Source: Thermodesulfobacteriota bacterium (GTDB taxonomy: Bacteria > Desulfobacterota > Desulfarculia > JACQYL01). From it: 64,000 bases of DNA. The DNA lies in assembly GCA_963675595.2 (NCBI GenBank), contig CAXXLZ010000002.1, forward strand, positions 3,296,001 through 3,360,000. The letters run 5' to 3'. The translations under genes were made by a program, and so were the position numbers. Positions 1 through 19,336 of the stretch are shown here, in pieces (position 1 is the first letter of the stretch; each line of letters begins with the position of its first letter). The notes beneath the pieces are model-generated. The model searched no databases and was not told the DNA's origin. It was given only the letters and a program-made list of their open reading frames with translations.

Positions 1-210
1 AATCGACCGGTGTGGTTTCAAGGTATGAGCATTCACATCAAAGACTTCGCTCCGCGATCCAAAAGAGGAATGCCCCAGCGGGACCACGTCGCGGTGATTA
101 TCAAACGGGATCGGGGTATTTGGCTCTACATCGCCGGCACGGTGCTGTTTACCTTGGGATTGCTCATGTATTTCCATGAATGGGTTCGAAAAAGGCAAGG
201 GAAGTGGTGA
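1..210 (+). CDS. 3' end of a ResB-like membrane protein (5' truncated by window edge)
   Basis: Frame open from base 1: NRPVWFQGMSIHIKDF...IIKRDRGIWLYIAGTVLFTLGLLMY, resembling the ResB C-terminal N-x-P...D-x-G plus TM helix pattern; TGA overlaps the next ATG. Confidence 0.5.
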   Translation, partial: NRPVWFQGMSIHIKDFAPRSKRGMPQRDHVAVIIKRDRGIWLYIAGTVLFTLGLLMYFHEWVRKRQGKW

Positions 211-1337
211 TGAAGAGACTCAACAGAATGATCGGATGGTGCTTGCCCGTCGTCTGCCTGACGTTGCTGACGCTGTGCGGTTGCCTGCAAGGTCGGCAGG
301 AAGGCGAAGGCTTCATCAACGTGGGGGAATTTACAGTCAAATCCCTCGACAACGGCTTGAAAGAACTGAGGGACGGACAGGGGCGCCGACTGGTTCTCGT
401 ACCCAGGGGTCAACAGGCCCCCCAAGGCTTTCGCAAGGAGGAGATCGTTCCCATACCCGTTCGTCGCGTGGTTGCCTATTCCACTCAGGAAGTGGCCATG
501 TTTCGAGCTTTGGGAGTGTTGGATACGCTCGTGGGCGTCACCACCAGGAAATGCGATTGGACGATGCGAGAAGTGGCTCGCGGGATGGAGGAAGGGAGAA
601 TCTCCTACCTCGGCGATTCCACTTCGGTGGACCTGGAGCGTTTGAAAGCCGCTCGTCCCGAAGTCGTTTTCACTTGGGACCAGAGTGTTGTCCCCATGCT
701 CGAAACCATGAACATTCCAGCGGTGATCACCTACACCGGCAGGGCCATGGACCTCGAGACGCGAGTTCGATTCATCCAATTCCTCGCGCCGTTTTTCGGA
801 AAAGAACGGGAAGCCGATCGTTTCGTAAAAACCGTTTTGGAGACCATTGCTGAGATTCGCCGAAAAACGGCCGACGTCAAACACAGGCCCAAAGTGATTT
901 GGGGGGATATCTACGAAAAACGGGTGATGGTGGAGCCGGGGAATTCATGGGTGGCGGAAATGATCAAGCTCGCCGGAGGAGACTATTTGTTCGAGGACAT
1001 CGGCGGCAGCCATTGACTGGAAATCACACTGGAAAGGTTTCTTTCCAGCGGAACCCGGGCGGATGTCTTCTTCACCTATCGAACGCCCCAATTCGGAGTG
1101 TCGTCCAAGGACGCCATCATGAGCATCAATCCCTTGATCAGAAATATCGCGCCCCTCAACCCCGCGGGTGAAACCTTTTCACCCTATCCGCTGTACGCGC
1201 AGTCCGGAGACGAACTGGCCGACGTCATCCGGGAAGTGGCTTCGATCCTTCATCCGGAGCTTTTCCGGCGGGAAAGAATCAAGTACTTCAGACGGCTTCC
1301 GCAGGAAGACCCCATGGATCGGACGGCGAGGAGATAA
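210..1337 (+). CDS. ABC transporter substrate-binding lipoprotein (BtuF/FecB class) with in-frame TGA at 1014-1016, probable selenocysteine (U269)
   Basis: ORFs 180..1016 and 1098..1337 share a frame; read-through gives ...EDIGGSH-U-LEITLERFLSSGTRADVFFTYR...ILHPELF; lipobox-like LTLCGC; IPVRRVV and DLERLKAARPEVVF motifs; stop overlaps the permease ATG. Confidence 0.85.
1014..1048 (+). promoter_or_regulatory. Putative bacterial SECIS element of the binding-protein gene
   Basis: TGA, 12 nt, then perfect 8-bp stem CTGGAAAG (1029-1036)/CTTTCCAG (1041-1048) with GTTT loop starting 20 nt after the TGA. Confidence 0.75.
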
Positions 1338-2359
1338 TGTCTGTAGGGAAAATCGACACAAACCACGGGATCGTGTTTTCAGCCTCTCTCGTCCTGCTGG
1401 TATCCGCGTTTGTCGTCAACGTGCTCATGGGGTCCGTGGAAATCTCTTTGGGACGGCTGGTGGAAATCGTGACTTCTTTTTCCACCGACGGCACCGAAGG
1501 ATTCATTGTTTGGAATATCCGAATGCCCCGGGCCGTGGCCGCGGCGCTGGGCGGTGCGTATCTCTCCGTGGCGGGTCTGCTGCTTCAGGTGTACTTCCGC
1601 AATCCCGTGGTGGGTCCGTTCATTTTGGGCATCAGTCACGGAGCGACTCTCACCGTATCGGTGGTCATGCTCACGAGTTACGGTTTGGGGCTGCCCCGTG
1701 TCAGTCCGTTCATGAGCACGATCGCGGCCTTCATCGGGGCCTACGGGACCATGGCGGTGGTGATCGGTATCGCGAGCAGACTCAGAAGCGGCATTACGTT
1801 GCTCATCACGGGACTGATGATCGGCTATTTGTGCATGGCCGTCACGAACGTGCTCATCGCTTTCGCCGAGCAGGAGAAGATCAAAGGATTCGTGCTCTGG
1901 CAATTGGGAAGTTTCGCGGGTTTCAAATGGATTGAAATCGAAGTCCTGGTCTACGTGGGGTGCTCGATCCTCACCGGCGTCTATCTTCTGAGCAAGCCCC
2001 TGAACGCTTTCTTGCTGGGAGAGGAATACGCGTCCACCATGGGGGTCAATATTCGTTTATTCCGGATTCTGATTCTTCTTTGCGCCTGCGCCCTGGCCGG
2101 CATGGTGACCTCCGTGGCGGGACCGGTGGCCTTCGTGGGACTTGCGGTGCCTCATCTGACGCGACTTTGCTTCGGCACGTCGGACAACCGCATTCTGATC
2201 CCCGGGGCCGTTCTCATGGGCGGCGCCGTGACCTGTCTTTGCGACCTCATCGCCAGACTGGTCTTCGCTCCCGTGGAACTACCCATCAGCGCCATTACGG
2301 CTCTGTTCGGGGCTCCCATCGTCATCAGCCTGCTCCTCAAGAAAGGAGCCTACATATGA
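1337..2359 (+). CDS. Iron-chelate/cobalamin ABC transporter permease (FecCD/BtuC family)
   Basis: IRMPR, FRNPVVGPFILGISHGA, LGEEYASTMGV, GPVAFVGLAVPH, CDLIAR, GAP motifs; multiple TM helices. Confidence 0.93.
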   Translation: MSVGKIDTNHGIVFSASLVLLVSAFVVNVLMGSVEISLGRLVEIVTSFSTDGTEGFIVWNIRMPRAVAAALGGAYLSVAGLLLQVYFRNPVVGPFILGISHGATLTVSVVMLTSYGLGLPRVSPFMSTIAAFIGAYGTMAVVIGIASRLRSGITLLITGLMIGYLCMAVTNVLIAFAEQEKIKGFVLWQLGSFAGFKWIEIEVLVYVGCSILTGVYLLSKPLNAFLLGEEYASTMGVNIRLFRILILLCACALAGMVTSVAGPVAFVGLAVPHLTRLCFGTSDNRILIPGAVLMGGAVTCLCDLIARLVFAPVELPISAITALFGAPIVISLLLKKGAYI

Positions 2360-3597
2360 CCCGTCCCGTTCCAAGAACTCGGGTCATTGAAACGCGCAAC
2401 CTGGCCGTGGGTTACGGACCAAAGGTCGTTCTCGACCATTTGAACGTTCATGTGGACGAAGGCAGTTTCGTAAGTCTCCTGGGACCCAACGGAGCGGGGA
2501 AGACCACGTTTCTCCGGACTCTGGCGCGCCTACTCCCGGTAATCAAAGGCAGCGTGTTCATTCGGGGAAAGGAGTTGGAGCTCTACTCGGCATCCGAACT
2601 GGCCAGGCGCCTTTCCGTTGTGCTCACGAACCGGGTGTCCCCCGGACTGTTCACCGCCTTTGAATTCGCGGCGCTCGGCCGCTATCCGCACACGGGGTTT
2701 TTGGGAAAGTTGAGCGACGCGGACCGAGACGTCACCCGGCATTGCCTGAAACTCGTTCATGCGGAAGACTTGGCGGAGCGGCGTCTGGATACCCTCAGCG
2801 ACGGTGAGCGGCAGAAAATCCTGGTGGCCCGCGCACTGGCCCAGGAGCCCAAGATCATCCTGCTGGACGAACCCACCCTGCATCTGGACCTGAAACACCG
2901 GATCGAATTGATGGCCATCCTGCAGCGCCTTTGCCGGGATGAGGGTATCTCGGTGGTGGCCTCGCTTCACGACGTTGATATCGCCGCGAAAGTTTCCGAC
3001 CAAGTGGGATTGATCAAAGGAGGAACCTTGATCCGGTGGGGTGCTCCGGAAGATGTTCTTCAGGAAGACGCGGTAGCGTCTTTGTACGACTTCAACGGCG
3101 CAAGTTTCAATCGCCGGCTGGGGAGCATCGAACTAAAGGGCGGCGGGGGGCGACAACGGGTTTGCGTGATCGCGGGAATGGGCAGCGGCGCGGTCTTGTA
3201 TCGTCTCTTGGCCAAACGGGGATACGTCTTGTCCACGGGAGTGCTCCCCTCCAACGACGTGGATGCCTACGTGGCCGCTTCCCTTAGCGCGGAGTGCGTG
3301 ACCAACTCGCCCATGGAAGCGATTTCCGATGAAGCGTTCCGGAAAACGAAGGAGCATATTCTGGAAGCCGATTTCGTTATCGACGCCGGCTTCGAGGTGG
3401 GCTCTTTGAACGAAAGAAACGTGGAACTGCTTCGGTTCGCCATGGAACAGAACAAGCCGGTTTACGGGCGATTGCCCGAGGGCGGCGTCGTTCCGCATCG
3501 GAACGGGGTGAGCTCCCGCATACCGTTCTATGCTTCGGAGCATGAGTTGATTGAAGAGGTGGAGGCGGCTCTTGCCCGAAGAAGGCCGGAGGCATGA
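2356..3597 (+). CDS. ABC transporter ATP-binding protein (FepC/BtuD-like) with about 150-aa C-terminal extension
   Basis: Walker A GPNGAGKTT, signature LSDGERQ, Walker B ILLDEPT, H-loop SLHD; ATG at 2356 overlaps permease stop (ORF track start 1960 is too far upstream). Confidence 0.92.
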   Translation: MTRPVPRTRVIETRNLAVGYGPKVVLDHLNVHVDEGSFVSLLGPNGAGKTTFLRTLARLLPVIKGSVFIRGKELELYSASELARRLSVVLTNRVSPGLFTAFEFAALGRYPHTGFLGKLSDADRDVTRHCLKLVHAEDLAERRLDTLSDGERQKILVARALAQEPKIILLDEPTLHLDLKHRIELMAILQRLCRDEGISVVASLHDVDIAAKVSDQVGLIKGGTLIRWGAPEDVLQEDAVASLYDFNGASFNRRLGSIELKGGGGRQRVCVIAGMGSGAVLYRLLAKRGYVLSTGVLPSNDVDAYVAASLSAECVTNSPMEAISDEAFRKTKEHILEADFVIDAGFEVGSLNERNVELLRFAMEQNKPVYGRLPEGGVVPHRNGVSSRIPFYASEHELIEEVEAALARRRPEA

Positions 3598-3679
3598 TGC
3601 GGTTTGCCTTTTTCTGGACGTCTCCCGATGCCGGCTGTTCGGTGCTCGGTGGAGGCTTTCGACATTGCAGGGAAGAGTG

Positions 3680-5689
3680 ATGAACGGAAATCAGGGTTTT
3701 CCCTTTTCGGCCATTGTCGGCCAGGAGAATTATAAGCTCGCCCTGATCCTCAATGCGGTCAACCCTCGGGTGGGGGGCGTGCTCATCCGAGGGGAAAAGG
3801 GCACCGCCAAGTCAACGGCGGTCAGGGCTCTGGCGGACCTGCTTCCGCGGGTCGAGGTGGTGGAAGGGTGCGCTTATGCGTGCGATCCCGGACGGCCCGA
3901 GGAACTCTGCGAATCCTGCGAAAGGCTGGGAGGGTCGATGCCGACGAGGCTGAAACGAAGGCCGGTGGTGACGCTGCCTCTGAATGCCACGGAGGATCGC
4001 GTCGCCGGGGGTATCGACTTCGATTCGGCCGTCAGGCAGGGCGTGCGGGTGCTTCAGCCCGGGCTGCTGGCCAGGGCGCACCGGGGGATTCTTTACGTGG
4101 ATGAAGTGAACCTGCTGGACGATCATCTGGTGGACATCATCCTGGATGCGGCGGCTTCCGGAGAAAACAGGATCGAAAGGGAGGGCGTCTCCCATCGCCA
4201 TCCGTCCCGTTTCATTCTGGTGGGAACCATGAATCCCGAGGAAGGCGAACTGCGTCCTCAACTGCTCGACCGTTTCGGCCTCTGCGTGGAAGTGACCGGG
4301 GAGCAAGACATCGAGAAACGTATGGAACTCATGAAACTCCGGGAGGAATTCGATTCCGATCCGAAGGGGTTCGTCCAGCGTTTCGCCGAGGAAAACAGGG
4401 AGATCGCCGCCCGCATTGATCGGGCCTGTGCCGCGCTGGAAACCGTAAGAATGGCCAAGCACCTCCGTTCCTTCATCGGTGAGCTCTGTGGGGAAAACCA
4501 TGTGGCCGGGCATCGCGCGGATTTGGTCGTCGAACAGGCGGCCAGGGCTTTGGCTGCTTATATGGGGCGCGGCGAAGTCACCGTGGAGGACATTCAGGAA
4601 GTGGCGCCCATGGCCCTGATGCATCGAAAGCGGGATGTCGCCCCACCACCTCCGCCTCCTCCGCCCGAGCCCGAAGACCGGCCTCCGGACCAAGGGGAAG
4701 CCGAGTCCGGGAAGGAACAGCAAGAGGAGCCGTCTGAAAAGACACCGTCGGAGGAGGAGAATGAAGCGCTTCCGCCCCAAGACTTGCCTCCGCCTGATCC
4801 GGGCGAGAAAGAGCGGGACCGAGAGGGGGAACAAGACGTTTTGGAGCGGATTTTTGAGGTGGGGGCCACCTTCAAGGTGAGAAGCTTCCAGGCGCGAAAG
4901 GATCGCCTCCTGCGGCGAGGTTCCGGCAGACGTTCCCGTTCCCGGGTATCGCAGAAACAGGGTCGCTACGTAAGAAGCACGAACCGGGAAATCAACGGAG
5001 ACATCGCATTGGACGCCACGCTTCGGGCGGCGGCGCCCCACCAGCTCAGGCGCAGAGGAGAAAGCGATCTGGCGGTATGCCTGCGCCCGGATGACATACG
5101 GGAAAAGATTCGGGAAAAACGTATCGGCAATTTCCTGCTCTTTCTGGTGGACGCCAGCGGTTCCATGGGGGCCAGAGGCCGGATGGCCGCATCCAAGGGA
5201 GCCATCATGTCCTTGCTGCTGGATGCTTATCAGAAGCGGGACCAGGTGGCCATGGTTTCATTCAGAAAGCGGGAAGCGGTGCTGAACCTACCTCCCACCT
5301 CCTCCGTTGAAATGGCCGGAAAGCTCCTGGAAGAAATGCCCGTGGGGGGGCGGACTCCTTTGGCTGCGGGCCTGGTAAAGGCATACGAAGTCCTGAGAAG
5401 CCGGCTTCTGAAAGACCCGTCGTCCAGACCTTTTGTAATCGTCATCACCGACGGAAAAGCCAATGCGGGGCTCGGTGAAGGGAGCCCGTTGGATGAAGCC
5501 TTCGCTTTGGCGAGCCGATTGGCGCTGGATGAAAGGCTCCATTTCATCGTGGTCGATACGGAAGAGGAAAACGTGGTTTCCTTCGGCCTTGCCCGCAAAC
5601 TGGCCATGATTCTGAGAGGGAGCTATTTCAGGATCGAAGACCTCAAAGCGGAGAACCTGGTGGAAATCATCAAAGGAAAGGCTGCATGA
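3680..5689 (+). CDS. Chelatase ChlD/BchD-like subunit (AAA+ domain, Pro/acidic linker, VWA domain)
   Basis: [47 protein letters not shown]; poly-Pro linker; MIDAS motif VDASGSM; ITDGKAN. Confidence 0.93.
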
Positions 5690-6732
5690 AGAAGGGACCC
5701 ATTTACCCGTTTACCGCCATTGTAGGCCAGGAAAAGATGAAGCTGGCCCTTATTCTCAATGTGATCAATCCGACCCTGTCGGGAGTGCTGATTCGCGGCG
5801 AAAAGGGCACGGCCAAGTCCACCGCGGTGCGCGCACTGGCCGAGATTCTGCCGGAAATCCAGGTGGTCGAGAACAATCCGTTTCAATTGTCTCCCGAAGA
5901 GGTTCGCGAACAGGAAGGGGACCTGTTCCAAGTGGCCGGGCGCGAGCAACCGGCGTCCGACGGAAGACCCGCAACGATCCGACGGAAGGTCAGGGTGGTG
6001 GAACTACCCGTGGGCGCCACGGAAGACCGCGTTGTCGGCACCCTGGACCTGGAACACGCCCTCAAGAAGGGAGAGAAGCGGATCGAACCGGGTATCCTGG
6101 CCTCCGCTCACCGTGGGATTCTTTATGTGGACGAAGTGAACCTGTTGGACGATCACGTGGTGGACGTCTTGCTGGATTCGGCGGCCATGGGAGTCAACAC
6201 CATCGAGCGCGAGGGCGTTTCTTTTTCGCATCCGGCTCGATTCACATTGGTCGGCACCATGAATCCCGAAGAAGGCGAACTGCGGCCCCAGCTTCTGGAC
6301 CGTTTCGGCTTGTGCGTCCATATCGAGGGCATCCACGAGCTGGAAAGTCGCGTGGAAATCATGGAACGTCGCGCCGCATTCGAGGAAGACCCGGAACGAT
6401 TCGTGGAAAGATGGGCTCCGGCCTCACGGGAACTCACCGAAAGAATTCAACGGGCCGGCGAACTTTATCCTCAGGTGGAAATGGATCGGTCTCATTTGAG
6501 TGAAATCGCCCGCTACTGCTTGGACGTGGGCGTGGACGGTCATCGGGGCGATATCGTCATTCTCAAGACGTCCAAGACCCTGGCTGCTTATCACGGAAGG
6601 ACCCGGGTGGAAGAGGAGGACATCGGGCAGGCCGCGGAACTCGCCTTGCCCCATCGGATTCGCCGTCAACCGCTCCAGGACGTCGTGTTCGACGTGCGCG
6701 GCATGCAGCCCGCTGGGGGAGGCGTCGTGTGA
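5686..6732 (+). CDS. Chelatase ChlI/BchI-like AAA+ subunit
   Basis: [50 protein letters not shown]; ATGA overlap with upstream gene. Confidence 0.93.
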
Positions 6733-6817
6733 CAGGGCGTTGAAAGACACGACCTGCGGCGTTGCGTTGCATGTCGTCGTTCTTACGTAGGCTGCAGCAC
6801 CTGCGTTTTTGCGGCCC
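6732..6817. repeat. Degenerate, shortened copy of the ~125-bp intergenic repeat
   Basis: ACAGGGCGTTGAAAGACACGACCTGCGGCGTTGCG resembles the left end of 13792-13914; ends in CGTTTTTGCGGCCC; follows a stop codon. Confidence 0.45.
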
Positions 6818-6873
6818 GGCGGGCATGTATTGGGAACGGCAGGCCTAAAGCGAACCTTCGACCGTGGTAATCG

Positions 6874-7998
6874 TTGAAGATGAAGGGCGACACGCGCAAA
6901 GAGGAATTCGCACCCCGGTATCTGGTGTTGTTCGTAACCACGGCGTGTAATCTGCAATGTCCCTATTGCTACGCAGACGACCTACGGGCAAAGAAGCCGA
7001 TGCCGTGGGAGGTGGCGGAGGCCGCTCTCAACCGGGTTGCGCACGGCGGCTTTCCGTTTCATGTGCAGTTGACCGGCGGTGAACCCACGTTGGAACCGGT
7101 TCTGGTCGAGAAGATCGCGTCTTGGTTGCGTTCCCGGCGACTACCGGCAAAAGTGGCTCTTCAAACGAACGGCACATGCTTGGACGAAGGGCTGGTCCGG
7201 ATTCTTCAAGAAAGAGAAGTCCAAATCGGTGTAAGTATCGACGGGTCTCCCTCGGTCCACGATCGCATTAGAGGCGGCGTTGTCGGGACGCTGAAAGGAC
7301 TGGACCTGCTGAGTCGCATGGGGGTCCCTTTCCGCACGACAACGGTGGTCACCCAAAGGAATGCGGCCGTCCTGGACCAGCCGGCGCTGATGCTCGCACG
7401 ATATCCGAATTTGCAGGGTATGGCTCTGGACTTGCCGGTACGTAAAGGGCGCATGATTTCAAGGGGCGAAGCGCTCTGTTGCGATCCGGAGTCTCTGGCT
7501 GCCGGCGTTGCCAAGCTGGTGAAGACCATCGACAGACTGAACGGGACCCGCCGACACCCTATTTCGCTGAGAGAATGGGAGAGGCTGCGTTCGTCGAGAA
7601 GAGAGGCGGCCCCAACGGACTATTGCCATGCATGCCGGGGCGAAAGCATGGCGGTTTTGCCGGACGGGTCCGTTTATCCCTGTTCCCAGACAGCCGGGGA
7701 TCCGGCGCTGCAATCGGGCCGGATCGACCGATGGGAATCGGTCCGACCGCGGATGCTCGGGAGGCGCAGTCTCCGTGAGGTTGCCGGGGAGGATTGCAGG
7801 ACCTGTATTGCGGAGCCTTTCTGTCCCGATGATTGTCCAAGCCGATTGCGCTACAACGACCCGCCGACCATCAAATCGGCGTGCGTTCTCTATCGCACGA
7901 TTGTCTCGTTGAGGGCCGGCGGAAGAGACGACGGCGAAGCGTGGACTTCGAAGGACGGTTCGTTCCGACGGGCGGCCCTGGATAAGGGCGACGGGTGA
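6874..7998 (+). CDS. Radical SAM protein with C-terminal SPASM/twitch-like Cys cluster
   Basis: CNLQCPYC, TGGEP, QTNG, VSIDG; C-terminal CHAC...DGSVYPC...CRTC...FCPDDCP...C. Confidence 0.9.
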   Translation: MKMKGDTRKEEFAPRYLVLFVTTACNLQCPYCYADDLRAKKPMPWEVAEAALNRVAHGGFPFHVQLTGGEPTLEPVLVEKIASWLRSRRLPAKVALQTNGTCLDEGLVRILQEREVQIGVSIDGSPSVHDRIRGGVVGTLKGLDLLSRMGVPFRTTTVVTQRNAAVLDQPALMLARYPNLQGMALDLPVRKGRMISRGEALCCDPESLAAGVAKLVKTIDRLNGTRRHPISLREWERLRSSRREAAPTDYCHACRGESMAVLPDGSVYPCSQTAGDPALQSGRIDRWESVRPRMLGRRSLREVAGEDCRTCIAEPFCPDDCPSRLRYNDPPTIKSACVLYRTIVSLRAGGRDDGEAWTSKDGSFRRAALDKGDG

Positions 7999-8111
7999 TG
8001 AGTCGGGAGAGTCCGCAACCGTTCGTCGAACGTTCGTTCTTCCTCGACTTCACAGCGAAGAAGGCGCCGTCGCGGTGAGTCGACTCCTCAAACCAATGTG
8101 AGGTGTCTCCT

Positions 8112-11100
8112 ATGAATCCTTACAGATTGTGCTACTTTTCGGCGACCGCTCTCGAGATTCCGTCCCTGAGAAGAGGACTGGACCTGTATCTGACGGATGG
8201 AGGGCGGGTCCGGGTCACCGCTCGCACCAACAACCAGCTTTTCGATGAAGCGCGGATCAAGGCTTTTGTCAAAGACGCCATGAAATCGGATGCGGTGATC
8301 GTCGTGCTGCACGGCGGCAAGGCGTCATGCGCGGCTTTCGACGCGCTGATAGCGGAATTTTCGGACCCCAAACGCAACGGAAGCAAAGCGCCTTACCTGC
8401 ACATTAAAGCGGATGTCGGCGATGAGGAAGGATTGTTCCTGGCCGGGGAGTATTCCGCGGAATTCGGTACCGAGAACTGGGACATCATATCCAGCTACGT
8501 TTCTTACGGCGGCCCGGTGAACTTTCGCCAGCTTTTCAGGTTCCTCGGCAACATCGTCGCGGACGACGACGTCGGTTGCGTGCCTCCCGAGCCGACGCCG
8601 GGAGAAGGGATTTATCATCCCGATGTCGCGGGCGTTCCTTCTTTGGACGAGTACCTGAAAGCCAAAGTGGATCCCTCGAAAATCACCGTGGGACTCTGGT
8701 TCTATCACTCCTATTGGATCAACAACAACCTCGAGCATATCAATGCCTTGATCAAGGAAGTCGAGAGCCGGGGGGCCAATGTCATCGCCGTTTTTCACCG
8801 AAGGTTCAAGGATGAGTCCTTGGGCACTCGAGGGGCCGATTACGTGGTGGATCATTTTTTTATGGAAAACGGGACGCCCCGAATCGATGCACTCATCAAT
8901 CCCATGAATTTTTCCCTTTCTCTTTTCTCACCGGAGTATGAAGGGTTGCTGGAGCGCCTGGATGTGCCCGTGATCCAGGCCCTGACCACGAGTCAACCCT
9001 ACGAGGTCTGGAAGGCCGGCGTCCAGGGCATGTCGAGCATGGAAGTCTCTTACGCGGCGGCTCAGCCCGAATTCGACGGAGCGTTGATCTCCGTGCCGGT
9101 GAGCACGCGGGAAGAAAATGAGACGGACCCGTTCACCGGCGCCCTGTTGTCCCGTATGGTTCCCATTCCCGATAGGGTTCGAAAGGTGGTTTCTCTGGCG
9201 CTCAACTGGGCCAAACTGAGAAAGAAAAGTCCGGACGGAAAGAAGATCGCCGTTATTTTTCACAACTATCCCCCCAGGAACGACCGCATCGGGTGCGCCG
9301 CAGGCCTGGACAGCTTCGAGAGCGTCAAACTGCTCCTGGATCGTATGAAGGAACAGGGGTACGTGGTTGAACAAACCTACGAGAACGGCGATGAATTGGC
9401 GCAAGAGATGGTCGAACGAATGACCTGCGACCAAAGATGGCTCACACCGGAACGGATGTCGGAAAAGGCGGAGGCGCGTGCCGGTCGAGAAGGTTATCTT
9501 CCTTGGCATGCGGCTCTTCCCGACGGAGTCCGATCGAAAATGCGGGAGGATTGGGGGGAGGTCCCCGGGGATCTCTTCGTCTACCGGGATGAAATGATGT
9601 TTCCGGGCATGATCAACGGGAACATTTTTCTTACCATTCAGCCTCCCAGGGGATACCTGGAAAACGTGGATAAGATTTATCATGACCTCTACCTCTCCCC
9701 GCCTCACCACTACCTGGCTCAGTATCGTTGGATCAGGGACGTATTCCGGGCGGACGCCGTGATGCATGTGGGCAAGCACGGGTCTCTGGAATGGCTTCCG
9801 GGCAAAGCGTTGGGCTTGAGCGAGGAGTGCTTTCCCGATCTCTCCATCATGGATTTGCCCAACGTTTATCCCTACATCATCAACGATCCGAGCGAAGGAA
9901 CTCAGGCCAAGCGCCGTTCCTATTGCTGTATCATCGACCACCTGACCCCGGTCTTTTCCAATGCCGATCTCTACGAGGACCTGACTCAGGTGGAATCCGC
10001 GTTGAAGGATTATGAAGACGCCGTTCGGGAGAACCCCGGCAAGCTCGACGTTTTGCGTCCCATGCTCTGGGAAGCCGTGGTCAAAGCGGATCTGGACAAG
10101 GATTTGGAAATGAACGAGGAATCCGCTTTCGCGGATTTCGAGAAGTTCCGGGAACAACTGCACGGTTACCTATCCGAACTGCGCGATACCATGATCAACG
10201 ACGGACTTCACATCATGGGAACGGCCCCTCGAGATGACCGCCTGGTGGAATTCCTCACGCAACTCACCCGACTCCCCAATGGAGCCGTCCCTTCCTTGAG
10301 GGAGGCTCTTGTCGCATATAAAGGATATGACTACGACGAGTTGCTCGAGAACCGGGGAAGCCGGTTCGCCGGTTCCGGCGATAAGACCGGAGGCATGTTG
10401 ATCGGTGAGGTCCATGAGCTGGCTCTGGAGCTGGTGGGCGGGCTGTCTTCCGAAGATTACGATCCGGAGCGGGCTTCCGCGGCGGTGGAGTCGGTATTGG
10501 GGAGGAGCGTTCCGGAAGTCCTGGAAATCGCGGACTACATTTGCCGGAATCTCGTTCCCGACATTCGTCGCGTGTCGGATGAGATCGATGCGAGTCTGCG
10601 GGCTTTCCAGGGTCGGTTCGTGCCGCCGGGACCTTCGGGCGCTCCCACCAGGGGGCAGGCGGACATTCTTCCCACGGGCCGCAATTTCTTTTCGGTGGAC
10701 CCCTCCAAGATTCCGACTCCCGGGGCCTGGGAGGTGGGCATAAGGCTCGGCGACGCTTTGATCGATCGATGCTTGCAGGAAAACGGAGAATATCCCGAAG
10801 GGATCGGCATTGTTTTGTGGGGCGGGGCCACCATGCGCTCCAAGGGAGACGATCTTGCCGAAATTCTCTACCTCATGGGGGTGAAGCCCGTATGGCAAAA
10901 GGGGAGCGGTCGGGTGACCGGGGTTGAGGTGATTCCCGTGTCGGAACTCAAACGCCCCAGATTGGATGTGACGCCTCGCATTTCGGGTTTTTTTCGAGAC
11001 GCGTTTCCCAACCTGGTGGAATTGATGGACGATGCGGTGCGCATGGTCGCCGCTCTCAAAGAACCTTTCGAATGCAACATGCTTCGGAGGAACGTGCTTC

Positions 11101-11885
11101 GGGATGTGGAATCTTACAGAAGCCAAGGCTTGAACGGGGAGGACGCATTCCGGGAAGCTACTTTTCGGATTTTCGGGTGTCCGCCGGGAACCTACGGCGC
11201 CGGAGTGGAGGAGCTGATTGAATCCAAGAACTGGAAGACTCAGGACGATCTGGCGGACAATTACATCCGGTATTCGGCCCATGCCTACGGTCGGAATTCC
11301 TATGGGAAGCACAATCCCGAAACGTTCAGGCGAGTTCTGTCCCGCATGGAGGTGACGGTGAAGAACGAGGATTCCAGGGAATACGATATGCTTTCGTGCA
11401 CCGACTTCTACAACTATTACGGTGGATTGATCGCTGCCGCCAAGTCGGTTCGGGGTGAGTTGCCGTTTGCCCTGGCCGGAGACGCGTCGGACCCCGGGCG
11501 GATTCTGATGCGCACTACCATGGAAGAGACCAAGCACGTGTTGAGGGCGCGGCTGGTCAATCCCAAATGGCTGGAGGGGATGAAGCGGCATGGTTTTAAA
11601 GGGGCGGGCGATATATCCAAAATGATGGACGTGGTTCTGGGATGGGACGCCACCGCCGAAGTCATGGAAGACTGGATGTACGAGCGGATGGCGCAACAAT
11701 ACGCTTTGGACCCGGACATGCGGCAATGGATGAAGGAAGTGAATCCCTATGCTCTTCAAAACATTCTGGATAAACTGCTGGAAGCCATCAGTCGGGGGAT
11801 GTGGAATGCCGGTGATGAGATGGAAGCGGAACTTCGAAACGCGTATCTTGAAATCGAAGGCCAAATTGAAGAGATCACCGAATAG
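8112..11885 (+). CDS. cobN: CobN/ChlH-family chelatase large subunit
   Basis: QPEFDG, HNYPP, PPHHYLA, HVGKHGSLEWLPGK, IIDHLTP, LPTGRNF, RISGFFRD, RLVNPKW motifs; GAGGTG RBS before ATG 8112. Confidence 0.93.
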   Translation: MNPYRLCYFSATALEIPSLRRGLDLYLTDGGRVRVTARTNNQLFDEARIKAFVKDAMKSDAVIVVLHGGKASCAAFDALIAEFSDPKRNGSKAPYLHIKADVGDEEGLFLAGEYSAEFGTENWDIISSYVSYGGPVNFRQLFRFLGNIVADDDVGCVPPEPTPGEGIYHPDVAGVPSLDEYLKAKVDPSKITVGLWFYHSYWINNNLEHINALIKEVESRGANVIAVFHRRFKDESLGTRGADYVVDHFFMENGTPRIDALINPMNFSLSLFSPEYEGLLERLDVPVIQALTTSQPYEVWKAGVQGMSSMEVSYAAAQPEFDGALISVPVSTREENETDPFTGALLSRMVPIPDRVRKVVSLALNWAKLRKKSPDGKKIAVIFHNYPPRNDRIGCAAGLDSFESVKLLLDRMKEQGYVVEQTYENGDELAQEMVERMTCDQRWLTPERMSEKAEARAGREGYLPWHAALPDGVRSKMREDWGEVPGDLFVYRDEMMFPGMINGNIFLTIQPPRGYLENVDKIYHDLYLSPPHHYLAQYRWIRDVFRADAVMHVGKHGSLEWLPGKALGLSEECFPDLSIMDLPNVYPYIINDPSEGTQAKRRSYCCIIDHLTPVFSNADLYEDLTQVESALKDYEDAVRENPGKLDVLRPMLWEAVVKADLDKDLEMNEESAFADFEKFREQLHGYLSELRDTMINDGLHIMGTAPRDDRLVEFLTQLTRLPNGAVPSLREALVAYKGYDYDELLENRGSRFAGSGDKTGGMLIGEVHELALELVGGLSSEDYDPERASAAVESVLGRSVPEVLEIADYICRNLVPDIRRVSDEIDASLRAFQGRFVPPGPSGAPTRGQADILPTGRNFFSVDPSKIPTPGAWEVGIRLGDALIDRCLQENGEYPEGIGIVLWGGATMRSKGDDLAEILYLMGVKPVWQKGSGRVTGVEVIPVSELKRPRLDVTPRISGFFRDAFPNLVELMDDAVRMVAALKEPFECNMLRRNVLRDVESYRSQGLNGEDAFREATFRIFGCPPGTYGAGVEELIESKNWKTQDDLADNYIRYSAHAYGRNSYGKHNPETFRRVLSRMEVTVKNEDSREYDMLSCTDFYNYYGGLIAAAKSVRGELPFALAGDASDPGRILMRTTMEETKHVLRARLVNPKWLEGMKRHGFKGAGDISKMMDVVLGWDATAEVMEDWMYERMAQQYALDPDMRQWMKEVNPYALQNILDKLLEAISRGMWNAGDEMEAELRNAYLEIEGQIEEITE

Positions 11886-11892
11886 TTCGGAA

Positions 11893-13791
11893 GTGAACTC
11901 CACCAACGGTGGAAGCGGCTGCAAACCGGTCCGTATCCCGGTGTTGTTGTGGGCGGTGATTTTCCTTTTCGTCGCCGGAGCTCACGCGCAGCAAGGCGGC
12001 GGGTCTTCTTCGGACCGTGAGTATCAACTGGAGTCCATCAAGGTGGTTGCGGATGCCATCGAGGAATTCGTCCAAGCCCACCCGGAGTCCGTAACGGTCC
12101 TCGACCGTGCGGAGATTGAACTGCGTAATTTCGGGGACCTTGGAGAAGCCGTTGCGAGCGTGCCGGGAGTCGAAGTGCGCAAAAGAGCGGGCAATTTAGG
12201 TACCCGAGTCATCATTCGAGGGGGGAGCGCCAACGGCGTGCTGGTGCTCATCGACGGCAAACCGGTTAACTCGACTCAGTTCGGAGCCGTGGACCTCGAA
12301 AGCCTGCCTCTGGAAATGGTCGAGAAAATCATGGTGTTCAAACCTCCGGTCCCCGTTGATCTCGGCCCCGGGGCATCGGGGGGCGCGGTGAACATCATTA
12401 CTCGGGTCAAAAAGAAGAGGCCGGTTGCCCGGACCAAGGCTCGGGTGGAGGGCGGGTCCTTCGGTACGGTTTCCGGAAGCGCCACGAGAATTCAGCCGCT
12501 GGGCGAGGATCAGTTTTTTGTGACGGCCGGGGGCGGCCATACCGACGGGAAGAGAACCAACAGCGACAACACCAAAGGGAATTTCAGCGCTCAGTGGCGG
12601 CGTGAGCTGGAAGGGTCCGACTCCCTGGACATCACCGGCCGCTATTACGGGGTCGAACGGGGCGCTTCGGGACCTCTGGACAACCCGACCCCGGACGCGA
12701 GGCAGAGCTATCATCACGCCTCTCTGGGATTGGATTACGATGGTATGTGGGAGGGGGCCGGCCCCTTTACCATCAAGGGCTACGGAGATTTTGAGCATCT
12801 AAACGATAAGACCCAGTTCGGTGACGACAGCGTTCTGAAGGTCTACAAGATCGGCACCAAGAACGAATTTACGTGGCCTCCCGATCAGGACTATTTCTTC
12901 AAGTTCGGCGCCTCCGCCGAGGGCAATTTCGTGGATCACACGGAGACCGGGTACCATGACCGGGGGAGGACGTCGCTTTACACCGAGTACCGCCGTGAAT
13001 GGAAACCCTGGACCTTCATGCTGGGAGTGAGAGGCGATTACACGAGCGATTTCGCCTTTCACCCCGGAGCTCAGGGAGGGGTGAGTCTGGCTCTCGGTCC
13101 CCGCACCGTGTTGCGGGGAAACGCGGGTTATGCCGTAGAAATACCCACCTTCGCACAACTCTACCAGCCCACCCACGGCAGCGCCGACCAGGTCCGTGGA
13201 AACCCGGACCTCAATGAGGAACGCTCCGTTTCCGTGGATATCGGGATCGAGCACGTGTGGTCGGAAATGCTCAGCATGGCATTGAGCGTTTTCCGCACGG
13301 ACACTTTCGATTACATTACCTCGGTGAGGGGCGACGATAAGATTTACCGCGGCGTCAATCTGGACCATGCCTCGCGACAGGGGGTCGAGGTGTCGGCCAA
13401 ATCCAGAATCAACGAATCCGTCACCCTTCGGTTCGACTATGTGTTTCTGGACACCAGAAATCACGATACGGATAAGGAATTGATTTACGCCGCCAAGCAC
13501 ACGATCAAAGGGTCCGGTACGTTCATCCTTCCCTTGGGCGTTCGTCTGGAACCGGAAGTCGCCTACGTGAGCGCGCGATTCGCGGACCTGGAGAATTCCG
13601 ACGGGCAGCGCCTCGGTGGATACACCAAGGTGAACTGCAAGGCCACCCTGCCTTTCGAAATGGGTCGATACAAAGCGGAAGCCTTTGTTTCGGTCTATAA
13701 TCTCCTCGACCATGACTTTTCCGTCCACTTCGGATATCCTGACGACGGCTTTCGAGTCATGGGAGGGCTGCAACTCGAGTTCGGCCCCTAA
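11893..13791 (+). CDS. TonB-dependent outer-membrane receptor (BtuB/heme-receptor-like)
   Basis: Signal peptide; TonB-box-like ESIKVVA; plug motifs VPGV, IRGG, VLIDG, GGAVNIIT; GNPDLNEE; NLLD; near-terminal Phe; start approximate. Confidence 0.9.
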   Translation: MNSTNGGSGCKPVRIPVLLWAVIFLFVAGAHAQQGGGSSSDREYQLESIKVVADAIEEFVQAHPESVTVLDRAEIELRNFGDLGEAVASVPGVEVRKRAGNLGTRVIIRGGSANGVLVLIDGKPVNSTQFGAVDLESLPLEMVEKIMVFKPPVPVDLGPGASGGAVNIITRVKKKRPVARTKARVEGGSFGTVSGSATRIQPLGEDQFFVTAGGGHTDGKRTNSDNTKGNFSAQWRRELEGSDSLDITGRYYGVERGASGPLDNPTPDARQSYHHASLGLDYDGMWEGAGPFTIKGYGDFEHLNDKTQFGDDSVLKVYKIGTKNEFTWPPDQDYFFKFGASAEGNFVDHTETGYHDRGRTSLYTEYRREWKPWTFMLGVRGDYTSDFAFHPGAQGGVSLALGPRTVLRGNAGYAVEIPTFAQLYQPTHGSADQVRGNPDLNEERSVSVDIGIEHVWSEMLSMALSVFRTDTFDYITSVRGDDKIYRGVNLDHASRQGVEVSAKSRINESVTLRFDYVFLDTRNHDTDKELIYAAKHTIKGSGTFILPLGVRLEPEVAYVSARFADLENSDGQRLGGYTKVNCKATLPFEMGRYKAEAFVSVYNLLDHDFSVHFGYPDDGFRVMGGLQLEFGP

Positions 13792-13914
13792 CAGGCTGCG
13801 CAAAAACGCGATCTGCTGCGTTGCGCTTCGTCCCTCGTCACTGCGACGTACTTTATGTACGTCTCATTCCTCGGGATTTGCGCGCCTTGCATCACATCGT
13901 TTTTTCGCAGCCTG
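13792..13914. repeat. 123-bp MITE/REP-like element with terminal inverted repeats
   Basis: Left CAGGCTGCGCAAAAACG and right CGTTTTTTCGCAGCCTG are 16/17 complementary; internal CCTCGTCACTGCGACG recurs at 49911 and, with one mismatch, at 63325. Confidence 0.75.
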
Positions 13915-13968
13915 CGGCAACCGGCCCTTTTCAGCGGGATGCCGGTGTTTGACCGGTCCGGACGCATT

Positions 13969-13994
13969 CCGGGAAGGGCGAGCCCCGGCTCGGC
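13969..13994 (+). repeat. Dispersed REP-like copy related to the repeats around the RAYT at 54 kb
   Basis: CCGGGAAGGGCGAGCCCCGGCTCGGC versus CCGGGAGCGCCGAGCCCCAGCTCGGC at 54054. Confidence 0.55.
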
Positions 13995-14160
13995 TCATCG
14001 ACGAAAGAAGCTGATGCGCGTTGGTGATGTTTGGAAGTTCGCCATGGGCGCTTCGTTCCAATATGGCGGTATCGGACCGACGGGAGGCCGTGCCGAGCGC
14101 CATGGGCGGTTTCCACGCGGTTGTGTGATCAACCTTGAAGCGGAAGAATAGGAAGAGCGC

Positions 14161-15123
14161 TTGATACGAATTGAAGGGCTGACGAAACGCTACGGGAACA
14201 TCACGGCGCTGAACGGCTTGGACCTCCATGTGCGGCAGGGGGAGTTCTTCGGGTTTCTGGGGCCCAACGGGGCGGGCAAGACCACCACCATCAGGATACT
14301 GACCACTCTGACCCTGCCCGATGGCGGTAAGGCCTGGATCGCCGGTCATGAAATATCGGCGCAACCCCTGGCGGCCAAATCCCGGACGGGGGTGGTGCCC
14401 CAAAGCATCAACCTGGATCAGGAGCTCACCGCCGGAGAAAACCTGGAAGTACACGGCCTCTTGTATAATATGTCCGCCTCGGATCGAAAGAAGAAGATTG
14501 GACAAGTCCTGGCTGAAACCGGTCTCACCGACCGGATCGAGAGTCAGGTACGAACTTTCTCGGGAGGGATGAAACGTCGCTTGATGATCGCCCGAGCACT
14601 GATGCACGAACCTTCGGTTCTCTTTTTGGACGAGCCCACCGTGGGCCTGGACCCTTCGGTGAAAAGAAGGCTTTGGGCACTGCTCAAGCAGATCAATCGA
14701 GGGGGAGCGACCATTTTTCTGACCACCCATTACATCGACGAGGCCGAGGCTCTTTGCGACCGTGTCGGCATCATCCATCACGGGAAACTCATCGCTCTGG
14801 ATACGCCCGCGAACCTGATCCGCAGCGCCGGAACTCACGTGGCCGACGTGTTCGAAGACGATACCATGACCACGCATTTCTTCGATTCGAGGGAAAGCGC
14901 GAGCTCCTTCGCTTCCACCCAGTCCCTGCCGGTGATGATCCGCAACTGCAACCTGGAAGACGTATTCGTGAAACTCACCGGTGAACAGATTCAGCCCGAA
15001 CGCCAGGTCCGGACTTCCCGGGAACACGGGGCTTCAGGCCACGGGAGCGCCCACGGCGGTTCCGGCACCGGGCACTCGAGCCATGGACAACACGGGCATG
15101 CATCGGGCCGTTCATCCCATTGA
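14161..15123 (+). CDS. ABC-2 exporter ATP-binding protein (DrrA/NodI-like) with His/Gly/Ser-rich tail
   Basis: GPNGAGKTT, FSGGMKRR, FLDEPTVGLD, TTHY; tail EHGASGHGSAHGGSGTGHSSHGQHGHASGRSSH. Confidence 0.9.
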   Translation: MIRIEGLTKRYGNITALNGLDLHVRQGEFFGFLGPNGAGKTTTIRILTTLTLPDGGKAWIAGHEISAQPLAAKSRTGVVPQSINLDQELTAGENLEVHGLLYNMSASDRKKKIGQVLAETGLTDRIESQVRTFSGGMKRRLMIARALMHEPSVLFLDEPTVGLDPSVKRRLWALLKQINRGGATIFLTTHYIDEAEALCDRVGIIHHGKLIALDTPANLIRSAGTHVADVFEDDTMTTHFFDSRESASSFASTQSLPVMIRNCNLEDVFVKLTGEQIQPERQVRTSREHGASGHGSAHGGSGTGHSSHGQHGHASGRSSH

Positions 15124-15267
15124 AGCCCCGGACGAGATTAGGGTGAAGGGTTTTCAAGAACGTTTTTCCCCGTGATCCTTTTCATAGTCGATGCACCCTG
15201 CCTCGCCGGCGGAGGCGGTGTTGAAAGTGTTCCTTTGTCGCCGGCCTGAGACGGATGGGAGTGTTGT

Positions 15268-16002
15268 ATGCGAGGCTACTTGGCCGTGCTCAAGCGGGAC
15301 CTGTTCATTCTCAAGCACCGGTTCTTCAAAGTCGTTCTTTCCCTGGCCGTTTCTCCGGTTCTGTTCCTCATCGCCTTTGGATGGGGAATCGGGAGGAGCC
15401 TGGATGTGGAGGGAGTTTCCTACATTCTGTTCATGGTTCCCGGATTGATCGCCATGAGCAGCATGTCCCAATCCTTCGGAATCGCCGTGGACATCAATGT
15501 GGCGCGGTTTTATTGGCACATCTTCGAAGAATTCCAGGCCGCGCCGGTGAGTGATTTCGCCATCGCGGCGGCGGAAGTGACCTACGGCATTCTCAAAGGT
15601 TTTCTGTCCGCCGCGGTCATCCTGATTCTGGCCTCCTTGGTGGGAACCCGCGTGTCCGTCAACCCGGGTTTCGTTTCGGCCGTGTTCGCCAACTGTTTCT
15701 GCTTCGCATCCCTGGCATTCATTGCCGCCATGGTGGTCAAGTCGCACGCGGACCAATCCGTGATCGCCAACTTCATTATCACCCCCATGGCCTTTCTGTG
15801 CGGAACGTTCTTTTCCTTGAAGGCGCTTCCGGCCTGGGCCTTCCACATCATCAACGTGTTGCCTCTCACCCAATCCACCAAAGCCATCCGCGCGTCCGCT
15901 CTGGGACGGGAATTCCCCTTTGCCGCCTTCTCCTATACGCTGGCCCTCGGCGCGATCTTCTTCACCATCGCCGTATTCATGGTGAGGCGGTCGAGGCAAT
16001 AA
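15268..16002 (+). CDS. ABC-2 type exporter permease
   Basis: YILFMVPGLIAM, APVS, PMAFLCGTFF, LPLT; about six TM helices; follows the ATPase. Confidence 0.9.
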   Translation: MRGYLAVLKRDLFILKHRFFKVVLSLAVSPVLFLIAFGWGIGRSLDVEGVSYILFMVPGLIAMSSMSQSFGIAVDINVARFYWHIFEEFQAAPVSDFAIAAAEVTYGILKGFLSAAVILILASLVGTRVSVNPGFVSAVFANCFCFASLAFIAAMVVKSHADQSVIANFIITPMAFLCGTFFSLKALPAWAFHIINVLPLTQSTKAIRASALGREFPFAAFSYTLALGAIFFTIAVFMVRRSRQ

Positions 16003-16227
16003 CTCGGAACTCCTGCATTGCCGGTCAAGAGCGATTTTTCAAAGCGGAGATCACTCGTCCGACGGTCGGAACGACTCCCACCCTTTCCGCTGGTTTCGCC
16101 TCTACTCCCTAGTTTTTCCAGGACCTTTTCAAGCCGGCAAGAGGGTGAACCATACCGGAGAAGTCCGCCTTCGGCGGACAACCCCGGATATTCATGAGTT
16201 ATGCGGCTGCGCTCCGAGGCTTTGCCG

Positions 16228-19275: not shown

Positions 19276-19336
19276 GGCACACTCCGTGAATGGGTACCCC
19301 CCGCCTATCCCATGAATGGATACACTTGGATATTCA

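Follow-up and report, generated by a model that had tools for sequence, protein, structure and literature searches.

Operons that combine a CobN-type chelatase with corrinoid uptake genes have been described before. Operon-2 of Dehalobacter restrictus PER-K23 comprises CobN, magnesium (Mg)-chelatase subunits, two CbiZ proteins and Fep/Btu-type transporters behind a riboswitch, and on corrinoid starvation its transcript rises 346-fold and its protein 46-fold (Rupakula et al. 2015, PMC4285132). The authors call it augmented salvage, with homologues in Acetobacterium woodii and ‘a few delta-Proteobacteria’; the portions of the paper available to us make no mention of a gene for a radical S-adenosylmethionine (SAM) enzyme in operon-2. 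CobN-like genes in B12 uptake loci were noted by comparative genomics in 2003, and Rocha et al. (PMC6460266) quote that work of Rodionov et al. for a third CobN type, BtuS, with a proposed role in ‘salvage of metalloporphyrins’; their strong induction emerged from the 2015 proteome study. Here we analyse a stretch of 64,000 nucleotides (the window; positions 3296001–3360000 of contig C2) of the 6.79-Mb genome of a Thermodesulfobacteriota bacterium, in which eleven genes at positions 1–16002 are best explained as the downstream part of a cobalamin-riboswitch-repressed operon that would be switched on when B12 is scarce.

The locus is of the published kind and represents a Gram-negative variant that is interrupted by an insertion sequence and carries a selenocysteine (Sec) binding protein. 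It shares with operon-2 the cobalamin riboswitch, the Fep/Btu-type ATP-binding cassette (ABC) importer, CbiZ, CobN and the Mg-chelatase-type subunits, and we find modules of this type also in Acetobacterium bakii, Neomoorella and Desulfobacterota loci. Unlike operon-2, the version described here is a diderm one, with a TonB-dependent receptor, a CcsA-like/ResB-like pair and the Sec binding protein; its CbiZ gene lies 13 kb upstream of the operon genes rather than within the operon (L002 5606–6778, where L002 is the 20 kb directly upstream of the window), and the insertion sequence cuts the operon itself.

Its transport genes invite comparison with BtuB–BtuFCD of Escherichia coli, which likewise unites a TonB receptor, a class III binding protein, a FecCD permease and an ABC ATPase with a cobalamin riboswitch. 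E. coli BtuF (1n2z) is among the Foldseek matches of the binding-protein model. However, the parts encoded in the window score below the equivalog cut-offs, and the binding lipoprotein has an extra N-terminal β unit and an invariant Cys/Sec residue that, to our knowledge, E. coli BtuF lacks. The original prediction, made from the sequence of the window, saw in these genes the import of an intact tetrapyrrole whose metal is changed or stripped. We retain from it a transport-plus-chelatase unit that is not a segment of de novo B12 synthesis, and part with it over the fate of the metal.

Operon structure and regulation

The operon begins about 3.6 kb upstream of the window, at a cobalamin riboswitch (RF00174) at L002 16399–16579 (+), which scores 122.1 bits against a gathering score of 31.5. 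This riboswitch lies 3.4–3.6 kb upstream of the window on the strand of the genes, so that the search for a B12 riboswitch suggested by the original prediction was rewarded, and it is one of three in L002 (122.1, 114.7 and 109.8 bits). A CcsA-like gene (L002 16734–17525) follows it, and the operon runs on from there into the window. An Rfam search of the window itself found no riboswitch, the 370-nt gap (13792–14160) before the ABC-2 genes included. In two relatives (loci L017 and L020) a riboswitch directly precedes the gene for the ABC-2 ATPase, and in a third (L016) one of three does.

We compared 12 related loci, those around CobN matches in relatives, by tblastn with the window proteins. 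At least one riboswitch is present in 10 of them, and among seven loci with the module from other phyla, six have one upstream on the same strand, the exception being a Treponema locus with none in the stretch examined. A riboswitch stands at the head of this operon and occurs in most of the related loci, and CbiZ often lies nearby; a corrinoid-type tetrapyrrole is therefore the most likely cargo.

Within the window the eleven genes follow one another on the + strand in the predicted order, as judged by Pfam, NCBIfam and a check of start codons. Overlapping stop and start codons, likewise predicted, are present at 4 of the 10 junctions: TGATG between the ResB-like and binding-protein genes, TAATG between binding protein and permease, and ATGA both between permease and ATPase and between ChlD and ChlI. 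The absence of cbi and cob biosynthetic enzymes from 1–16002 was also confirmed by Pfam and NCBIfam.

The cobaltochelatase-type subunits

The CobN gene (8112–11885 (+); PF02514, 1318.6 bits), whose product we call CobN1, encodes what its family scores and phylogeny class as the large subunit of a class I, ATP-dependent chelatase of the cobaltochelatase type. CobN1 scores 955.7 bits with the cobaltochelatase CobN model TIGR02257, above the cut-off of 822.05, and 800 bits with the BchH model TIGR02025, below its cut-off of 829; no bch genes lie in the window. Its partner genes are found 1.4–4.4 kb upstream in the same operon. The ChlD-like subunit (AAA+ plus VWA; 3680–5689 (+); Mg_chelatase, AAA_lid_2 and VWA_2) reaches 804.8 bits with the ‘putative cobaltochelatase’ model TIGR02442 (cut-off 779.45), while the ChlI-like AAA+ motor subunit (5686–6732 (+); Mg_chelatase and AAA_lid_2) stays at 432.3 bits, below the BchI-ChlI cut-off of 466.95. 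Against solved chains, CobN1 scores 786 and 680 bits with the CobN entries (7c6o and 9uk9 being the chains compared), 483 with ChlH and 359 with HmuS.

A quick maximum-likelihood tree of 23 sequences (LG+G4), supported by the Shimodaira–Hasegawa-like approximate likelihood-ratio test (SH-aLRT) only, places CobN1 and 12 relatives in a clade of their own (100% SH-aLRT). This clade is nested in one of 18 rows (again 100%) together with cobN of Sinorhizobium, Paracoccus, Ralstonia, Tsukamurella and Haloferax. Two annotated cobN genes in it lie in cobW-cobN-cobO and cobW-cobN-cobG clusters. BchH, Bacteroides HmuS (from an hmuY-hmuR-hmuS operon) and the two further CobN-family proteins of this genome, CobN2 and CobN3, all fall outside. 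CobN1 is alike to cobaltochelatase CobN in the models passed by it and by its ChlD-like partner, in its highest-scoring solved structures and in its clade. The contexts differ: annotated cobN genes stand in cobalt-late (cobW, cobG, cobO) or cobalt-transport surroundings, whereas CobN1 stands in an uptake operon, in an organism with the cobalt-early route, and forms its own subclade.

These observations speak against the part of the original prediction that has the system change or strip the metal. CobN1 passes the CobN cut-off and fails that of BchH, groups with cobN, gives its lowest score with HmuS, is flanked by ChlI and ChlD, and contains no hydrophobic 19-mer, whereas the Bacteroides finegoldii HmuS copy and CobN3 have one at each end. 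The grouping with cobaltochelatases had been named as an observation that, together with a standard B12 pathway upstream, would refute the prediction; the grouping is what we see, and no such pathway was found upstream.

CobN2 and CobN3 complete the set of three CobN-family genes in the genome and score 683.2 and 622.2 bits with TIGR02257, below the cut-off. CobN2 (L002 12107–15961 (−), 1284 aa) has no hydrophobic anchors, remains below both the CobN and the BchH cut-offs and falls outside the cobaltochelatase clade; a CobN2-like gene adjoins CobN1 in the related locus L021. CobN3 (C2:3845–3849 kb, 1315 aa) lies 490 kb away. Its neighbours (L028 7049–14701, C2:3845–3852.7 kb) include a 711-aa protein in which a periplasmic binding protein is fused to CbiZ, as well as a protein of the MotA/ExbB family, and a gene for a SOUL heme-binding protein lies 6 kb from it. 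CobN3 shares the two-end anchor architecture of HmuS, and an HmuS-like function would suit it better than it suits CobN1.

The selenocysteine binding lipoprotein

The second gene of the window (210–1337 (+)) encodes a BtuF-like class III periplasmic binding lipoprotein (Peripla_BP_2, 59 bits). Translation table 11 reads it as two open reading frames (ORFs) because of an in-frame TGA at 1014–1016; reading through gives a lipoprotein of 375 codons, the usual length of the family. The evidence identifies this TGA, codon 269 (residue 279 when counted from the ATG at 180), as a selenocysteine codon aligned with an invariant cysteine, and the predicted Sec-binding protein as the product of a single selenoprotein gene. 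All 117 full-length database homologues have Cys in the TGA column, as do all five relatives that cover the site. The three nearest database entries, this genome’s own included, are gene calls that end exactly at the TGA, and a metagenome scan with one such shortened call as query returned 20 loci, each with TGA at the codon and an in-frame continuation. The genome also has the machinery, with a tRNA-Sec (anticodon TCA) and selB (404.2 bits against a cut-off of 242.25).

Folding finds a hairpin like a selenocysteine insertion sequence (SECIS) at 1029–1048 (+), beginning 12 nt past the TGA, with a stem of 8 bp and a GTTT loop. The window sequence on its own gives no significant fold (z = −1.17). 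Across 15 distinct sequences the stem is paired in 115 of 120 cells, against 48–81 of 120 when the 3′ arm is slid. Pair 18–27 is A-T in ten of these sequences and G-C in five, a covariation brought about by two synonymous codon changes.

The residue lies in the motif G-x-S-U-[ILM]-E-[IV], and the third position ahead of Sec is not a Cys. A 2026 review (PMC13188914) tabulates a selenoprotein ‘Cobalamin-binding protein BtuF’, which, compared by description only, resembles ours in being the periplasmic binding component of an ABC importer under riboswitch control, with an in-frame TGA and a SECIS-like hairpin; the tabulated motif, in contrast, is CxxU. The term ‘BtuF’ was not found in the text and four supplements of the source cited by the review (Peng et al. 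2016, PMC5029168).

In the Cys forms, conservation extends to four positions: C191 (110/117), M240 (116/117), C279 (117/117) and H358 (117/117). All 22 Sec-type sequences that cover positions 191 and 240, namely the window’s own, the 20 metagenome loci and P0122, have Asp or Asn at 191 and Ile at 240. This coupled change at 191, 240 and 279 suggests that the three residues form one site, although the Sec forms may be a single lineage, in which case the coupling need not mean repeated events. Cysteine thiolate can ligate the cobalt of cobalamin in the transporter BtuM, and the invariant Cys/Sec of the binding protein probably ligates a bound metal. An AlphaFold2 model of the protein has a mean predicted local distance difference test score (pLDDT) of 89; confidence is lowest around the Sec loop, and the extra N-terminal β unit is present. 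Sequence and profile searches against solved structures gave weak matches.

Transporters and the CcsA-like/ResB-like pair

Pfam-level membership is clear for the importer and receptor (FecCD; Peripla_BP_2; plug and barrel), and the best NCBIfam matches all point to B12. The permease (FecCD/BtuC-like; 1337–2359 (+); PF01032, 253 bits) matches BtuC best, with 197.5 bits against a cut-off of 334. The importer ATPase (2356–3597 (+); ABC_tran), a protein of 413 aa with a C-terminal extension, matches the ‘corrinoid ABC transporter ATPase’ with 230.7 bits against 537. The TonB-dependent outer-membrane receptor (about 11893–13791 (+)), which has plug and β-barrel domains and a signal-peptide-like N terminus, matches the TonB-dependent vitamin B12 receptor with 129.5 bits, far below the cut-off of 599.7. 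For the binding protein NCBIfam gave no B12 model. The putative exporter consists of an ABC-2 type ATPase of the DrrA/NodI kind (14161–15123 (+); ABC_tran), with 290.4 bits for the drrA subfamily against a cut-off of 312.45, and an ABC-2 type permease (15268–16002 (+); ABC2_membrane, 58.4 bits).

Immediately before the binding protein stand the CcsA-like gene and the ResB-like gene. The CcsA-like protein of this genome gives 27.8 bits with Cytochrom_C_asm (cut-off 29.9) and its orthologue in the closest relative (L015) 42.5; in the family, an invariant His comes after the WWD-like segment ‘E.WSY....PV.W’. The ResB-like motifs ‘PH..H’ and ‘NT.VC’ are conserved in six orthologues. In their Pfam matches (ResB and, below the cut-off for the CcsA-like protein of this genome, Cytochrom_C_asm), WWD-like segment, invariant His and ‘PH..H’ motif these proteins resemble the System II CcsBA/ResBC synthetase. 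They differ from it in being about half the canonical size and in standing beside the Cys/Sec binding protein in B12-riboswitch loci, not beside cytochrome genes. The genome has a canonical pair as well, at C2:3807089–3809235 (ResB 470 aa, CcsA 286 aa).

The pair is confined to diderm loci. It directly precedes the Cys/Sec binding protein in all six of the relatives’ loci that have a binding protein, and again in all four such loci among those found with the radical SAM profile (below); in the metagenome loci with upstream DNA, a ResB-like gene, mostly after a CcsA-like gene, precedes the binding protein in 14 of 15. Among the matching papers listed, we found none that links ResB or CcsA with cobalamin riboswitch loci.

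The radical SAM/SPASM enzyme

Between the ChlI-like gene and CobN lies the gene for a radical SAM/SPASM enzyme (6880–7998 (+); Radical_SAM, Fer4_12). Of 120 homologues, 116 retain the cysteines of the CX3CX2C motif (C23, C27 and C30), and all have the seven cysteines of the SPASM signature (C249, C268, C306, C309, C315, C319 and C335). Its profile aligns over the full length with the anaerobic sulfatase maturase anSME (4k37). The family is unnamed: no NCBIfam cut-off is reached, public sources say just ‘radical SAM/SPASM’, and the weak NCBIfam matches include the tetrapyrrole enzymes AhbC, AhbD and NirJ (47–53 bits).

Conservation across genomes

Of 40 further genomes of the class, 15 have a full-length match to CobN1 (46–65% identity); the four from the same family and order have none. 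As the neighbourhood comparison proposed with the original prediction shows, the transport genes travel with the chelatase in relatives, the same genes recurring in shuffled order. Among the 12 related loci the radical SAM gene is present, beside CobN, in nine; ChlD, ChlI, BtuC and the TonB receptor in eight each; the CcsA-like gene in seven; the ResB-like gene, the binding protein (BtuF) and the ABC-2 pair in six each; and an adjacent CbiZ in five. The closest relative (G014, locus L015) has, after its riboswitch, DUF3450, two ExbB, ExbD, TonB, a TPR protein, CcsA-like, ResB-like, BtuFCD, CobN, receptor and ChlD. A complete TonB energising set is thus under B12 control in that relative (L015 1819–7504), and the operon of the present genome has no such set. 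In another related locus, L019, a group II intron RNA domain (RF02005, 111.8 bits; 10200–10448) precedes the riboswitch and CobN by 1.7 kb.

The association with the radical SAM enzyme reaches further. A search with its profile, covering one genome per species, yielded 79 loci; CobN-family genes occur in 22 of the 34 best-matching ones against 1 of the 45 others, several of the negatives being contigs of 2–5 kb. The CobN-positive loci carry the labels Desulfobacterota, Chlorobium, Accumulibacter, Actinomycetota, Desulfovirgula, Neomoorella, Acetobacterium, Selenomonas, Fusobacterium, Treponema and Clostridiales, and weakly Methanothrix.

Other features of the region

The second riboswitch of L002 (16040–16228 (−)) is divergent from the first and heads a stretch (11022–15961 (−)) that encodes CobN2 and a 374-aa ‘Gate’ membrane protein of the nucleoside recognition domain type. 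The third (9108–9290 (+)) is followed by a 487-aa protein (9446–10909 (+)) that has no Pfam or NCBIfam family and has homologues of 31–35% identity in the related loci L022 and L023. Downstream of the system, a 285-codon ORF at 16201–17058 (+), rich in Arg, His and Gly and with neither a family nor a counterpart in relatives, is probably not a real gene and was excluded. From 17 to 64 kb the window encodes functions unrelated to the system (GGDEF, MnmE, Jag, RibF, chemotaxis and others), with no further B12 genes and no bch genes. A scan of 1–17500 for promoters and terminators stayed around or under the level of chance and was left out of account, with 1 promoter-like site against 4.8 expected and 21 terminator-like sites against 19.5.

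Proposed mechanism

On balance we favour, with some reserve, a B12-starvation operon in which corrinoid uptake is joined to an ATP-driven, cobalt-type chelatase and a radical SAM partner that act on a cytoplasmic corrinoid intermediate. A corrinoid, whether complete, incomplete or metal-free, would pass the outer membrane via the TonB-dependent receptor. In the periplasm it would be taken up by the BtuF-like lipoprotein, whose invariant Cys (here Sec) would probably ligate the metal, with assistance from the CcsA-like/ResB-like pair, and the BtuCD-like importer would then bring it into the cell. There CobN, ChlI and ChlD, with the radical SAM/SPASM enzyme, would process a corrinoid intermediate, the most likely step being the ATP-dependent insertion of cobalt into a corrinoid that has no metal or has lost it. 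The cofactor could then be rebuilt by the usual late pathway together with CbiZ, whose gene is close by, while the ABC-2 pair might export something, perhaps a rejected product. What we observe directly are the riboswitch, the families to which the proteins belong, the selenocysteine codon, the recurrence of the gene set and its distance from the de novo cbi genes. The cargo, the substrate and direction of the chelatase, and the roles of the radical SAM enzyme, the CcsA-like/ResB-like pair and the exporter are what we infer here from the genes and their company. Ring modification and the export of a by-product, which formed part of the original prediction, would rest on the conserved radical SAM/SPASM gene and the ABC-2 pair.

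Several points weigh against this interpretation. Our CobN tree is a quick one with SH-aLRT as its only support, and its anchors are annotated genes rather than assayed enzymes. The permease, importer ATPase and TonB receptor all miss the B12-specific cut-offs of NCBIfam. Foldseek places the binding-protein model equally among siderophore, heme and B12 binders, and since the fold matches three ligand classes alike, it is the context of this protein that speaks for a corrinoid. The insertion sequence may silence the locus in this strain. The organism also possesses the cobalt-early route (CbiK, CbiD, CbiG), and genes of the aerobic pathway are absent from the window and from L002; we know of no substrate for late cobalt insertion in this organism. 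Finally, the distribution of CbiD and the position of CbiD or CbiK copies, riboswitch-controlled and 5–20 kb from CobN in several relatives, would fit a role in synthesis at least as well as one in salvage.

Alternative interpretations

The first alternative concerns this strain rather than the function of the module, and is independent of the other readings: whatever its role elsewhere, the locus may here be a recently disabled remnant, which we regard as a real prospect falling short of even chances. Between the CcsA-like gene and the window lies an insertion sequence of 1879–1880 bp (L002 about 17820–19698; C2:3293820–3295698), which encodes a DDE transposase (DUF772, DDE_Tnp_1, DDE_Tnp_1_6) on the minus strand, opposite to the operon. 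It sits inside the reading frame of the ResB-like gene, is flanked on both sides by CAAGCTTG, and separates the eleven genes from their riboswitch and promoter, so that the transcription unit from riboswitch to genes is interrupted by 1.88 kb. The assignment of the first gene to the ResB-like family holds, but the window contains only its 3′ part (1–210 (+); PF05140). About 105 codons lie to the left of the element and about 170, partly outside the window, to the right, and together they match the intact 274-aa orthologue of the closest relative (L015:8281–9105). This orthologue scores 32.9 bits against the cut-off of 24.6, and the fragment at C2:3295722–3296051 scores 26.

Twenty other full-length copies of the element, at least 99.8% identical, lie on contigs C1 and C2, which argues that it is, or recently was, active; two of these copies stand in tandem at C2:3852921–3856684, and there are diverged remnants at C2:2236–2243 kb. 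In two other studies, contigs with 99.0% and 99.3% identity to L001 1196–4000 (2.8 kb) carry the region but lack the element, and one of them continues, exactly at the junction, into the sequence found to the left of the element in this genome. The insertion is therefore recent and strain-specific. Against loss of function, all ten downstream genes keep open frames, the Sec codon is retained, and transcripts could begin within the element or in the 370 nt that precede the gene for the ABC-2 ATPase. Three of the 12 related loci (L019, L023 and L026) have neither a CcsA-like nor a ResB-like gene in the stretch beside CobN, and the ResB-like gene is thus perhaps dispensable for the core of the system.

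A second alternative turns from salvage to cobalt supply. The TonB receptor and the BtuFCD-like importer would bring in free or complexed cobalt, with Cys/Sec as a soft metal ligand, and CobN–ChlI–ChlD would insert the scarce metal into an intermediate of the cell’s own pathway at low B12, for example in sulfidic habitats. The genomic record lends this some weight. In 41 related genomes, which are kin and do not amount to a statistical test, CbiD is present in 20 of 20 with a CobN-family match and in 10 of 21 without one; none of the 11 CbiD-negative genomes has a match, and CbiK accompanies 19 of the 20 matches. Riboswitch-controlled CbiK and cbi genes lie near CobN in several relatives, and the conserved Cys, Met and His residues of the binding-protein family (C191, M240, C279 and H358) would suit a metal. 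There are also precedents in the BtuF-like cobalt importer CbtJKL and in B12-regulated TonB receptors predicted to be cobalt-specific (reviewed in PMC7689651). We nevertheless think cobalt supply unlikely as the main function. CbiZ, which acts only on corrinoids, is adjacent in five of the 12 related loci and present in the Dehalobacter operon, and in D. restrictus, which is auxotrophic for corrinoids, starvation for them induces that operon (PMC4285132). Receptor, permease and ATPase each have a B12 or corrinoid transporter as their best NCBIfam match, albeit below threshold, and cobalt supply leaves the radical SAM enzyme, the CcsA-like/ResB-like pair and the exporter without a role.

The B12 pathway of this genome has a bearing on both interpretations. 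CbiD, CbiG and three tetrapyrrole methylases are encoded together in an anaerobic cbi cluster at C2:4.18 Mb, 880 kb away, and the only CbiK-family gene lies far from that cluster, at C2:1.93 Mb (L027 7937–8971, C2:1931.9–1933.0 kb); the CbiX family has no match in the genome. The original prediction was thus sound in setting the unit of transport and chelatase genes apart from de novo synthesis. This CbiK has an N-terminal extension of about 46 residues and scores 131.9 bits; among the other 28 genomes with a match, only in G001 and G022 is the best score not higher. It stands alone beside a sigma-54 activator, with a reverse-transcriptase gene 3 kb away. Three of four genomes from other phyla with the module have CbiD, and a Treponema metagenome-assembled genome of unknown completeness showed none. 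The chelatase thus adds to the early-insertion route and does not replace it, and it occurs mainly, perhaps not only, in B12 producers.

An extension of our preferred reading, which we consider distinctly improbable as a whole, is that the module constitutes a previously undescribed pathway of corrinoid repair and re-metallation. The CcsA-like/ResB-like pair, as a descendant of the heme-handling cytochrome c synthetase, would hand an incomplete or base-off corrinoid to the lipoprotein, whose invariant Cys, replaced by Sec in one lineage, would ligate the cobalt. In the cytoplasm, salvaged or damaged corrinoids would regain or exchange their metal through CobN–ChlI–ChlD and the SPASM enzyme, which together would also trim substituents of the ring.

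The converse direction, in which the CobN complex removes or exchanges the metal of an imported heme, corrinoid or nickel tetrapyrrole, the ring is altered and the leftover exported, has a precedent in HmuS, a CobN homologue that dechelates heme (PMC12583661), and the same source holds that most bacterial and archaeal CobN-like sequences are not reliably annotatable. The conserved exporter and ring-chemistry enzyme would also suit it. HmuS and BtuS do share with CobN1 a place beside a TonB-dependent receptor in a tetrapyrrole uptake locus. HmuS, however, is anchored at both ends, whereas CobN1 is without anchors, lies outside the HmuS branch and, among solved homologues, resembles HmuS least. 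The Bacteroides hmu operon consists of HmuY, a TonB receptor, HmuS and a MotA/ExbB protein with neither ChlI nor ChlD, both of which accompany CobN1. Moreover, the riboswitch would turn the genes on at B12 shortage, when the destruction of corrinoids makes little sense unless cobalt is the prize, and the architecture of HmuS recurs in the paralogue CobN3. We therefore hold dechelation to be highly improbable here. A role of the radical SAM enzyme as a maturase of a ribosomally synthesised and post-translationally modified peptide was rejected, as its gene abuts or overlaps its neighbours in L016 and L017 with no conserved small ORF, and travels with CobN across phyla.

Implications

The copy in the window is itself of limited value, being interrupted and of a known kind. 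What it brings into view is that the B12-starvation operons of many anaerobes pair a class I chelatase of the cobalt type with its own radical SAM enzyme; the carriers, among them Desulfobacterota, Chlorobium, Acetobacterium, Selenomonas, Fusobacterium and Treponema, include inhabitants of sediment, gut and mouth. The Sec binding protein and its CcsA-like/ResB-like companions offer a concrete handle on the system, with one Cys/Sec residue to follow. If the repair and re-metallation pathway were true, it would give anaerobes an oxygen-independent, late, ATP-driven cobalt insertion beside CbiK. The role of the chelatase bears on late cobalt insertion or corrinoid repair in anaerobes, and hence on how B12 and cobalt may be shared in microbial communities.

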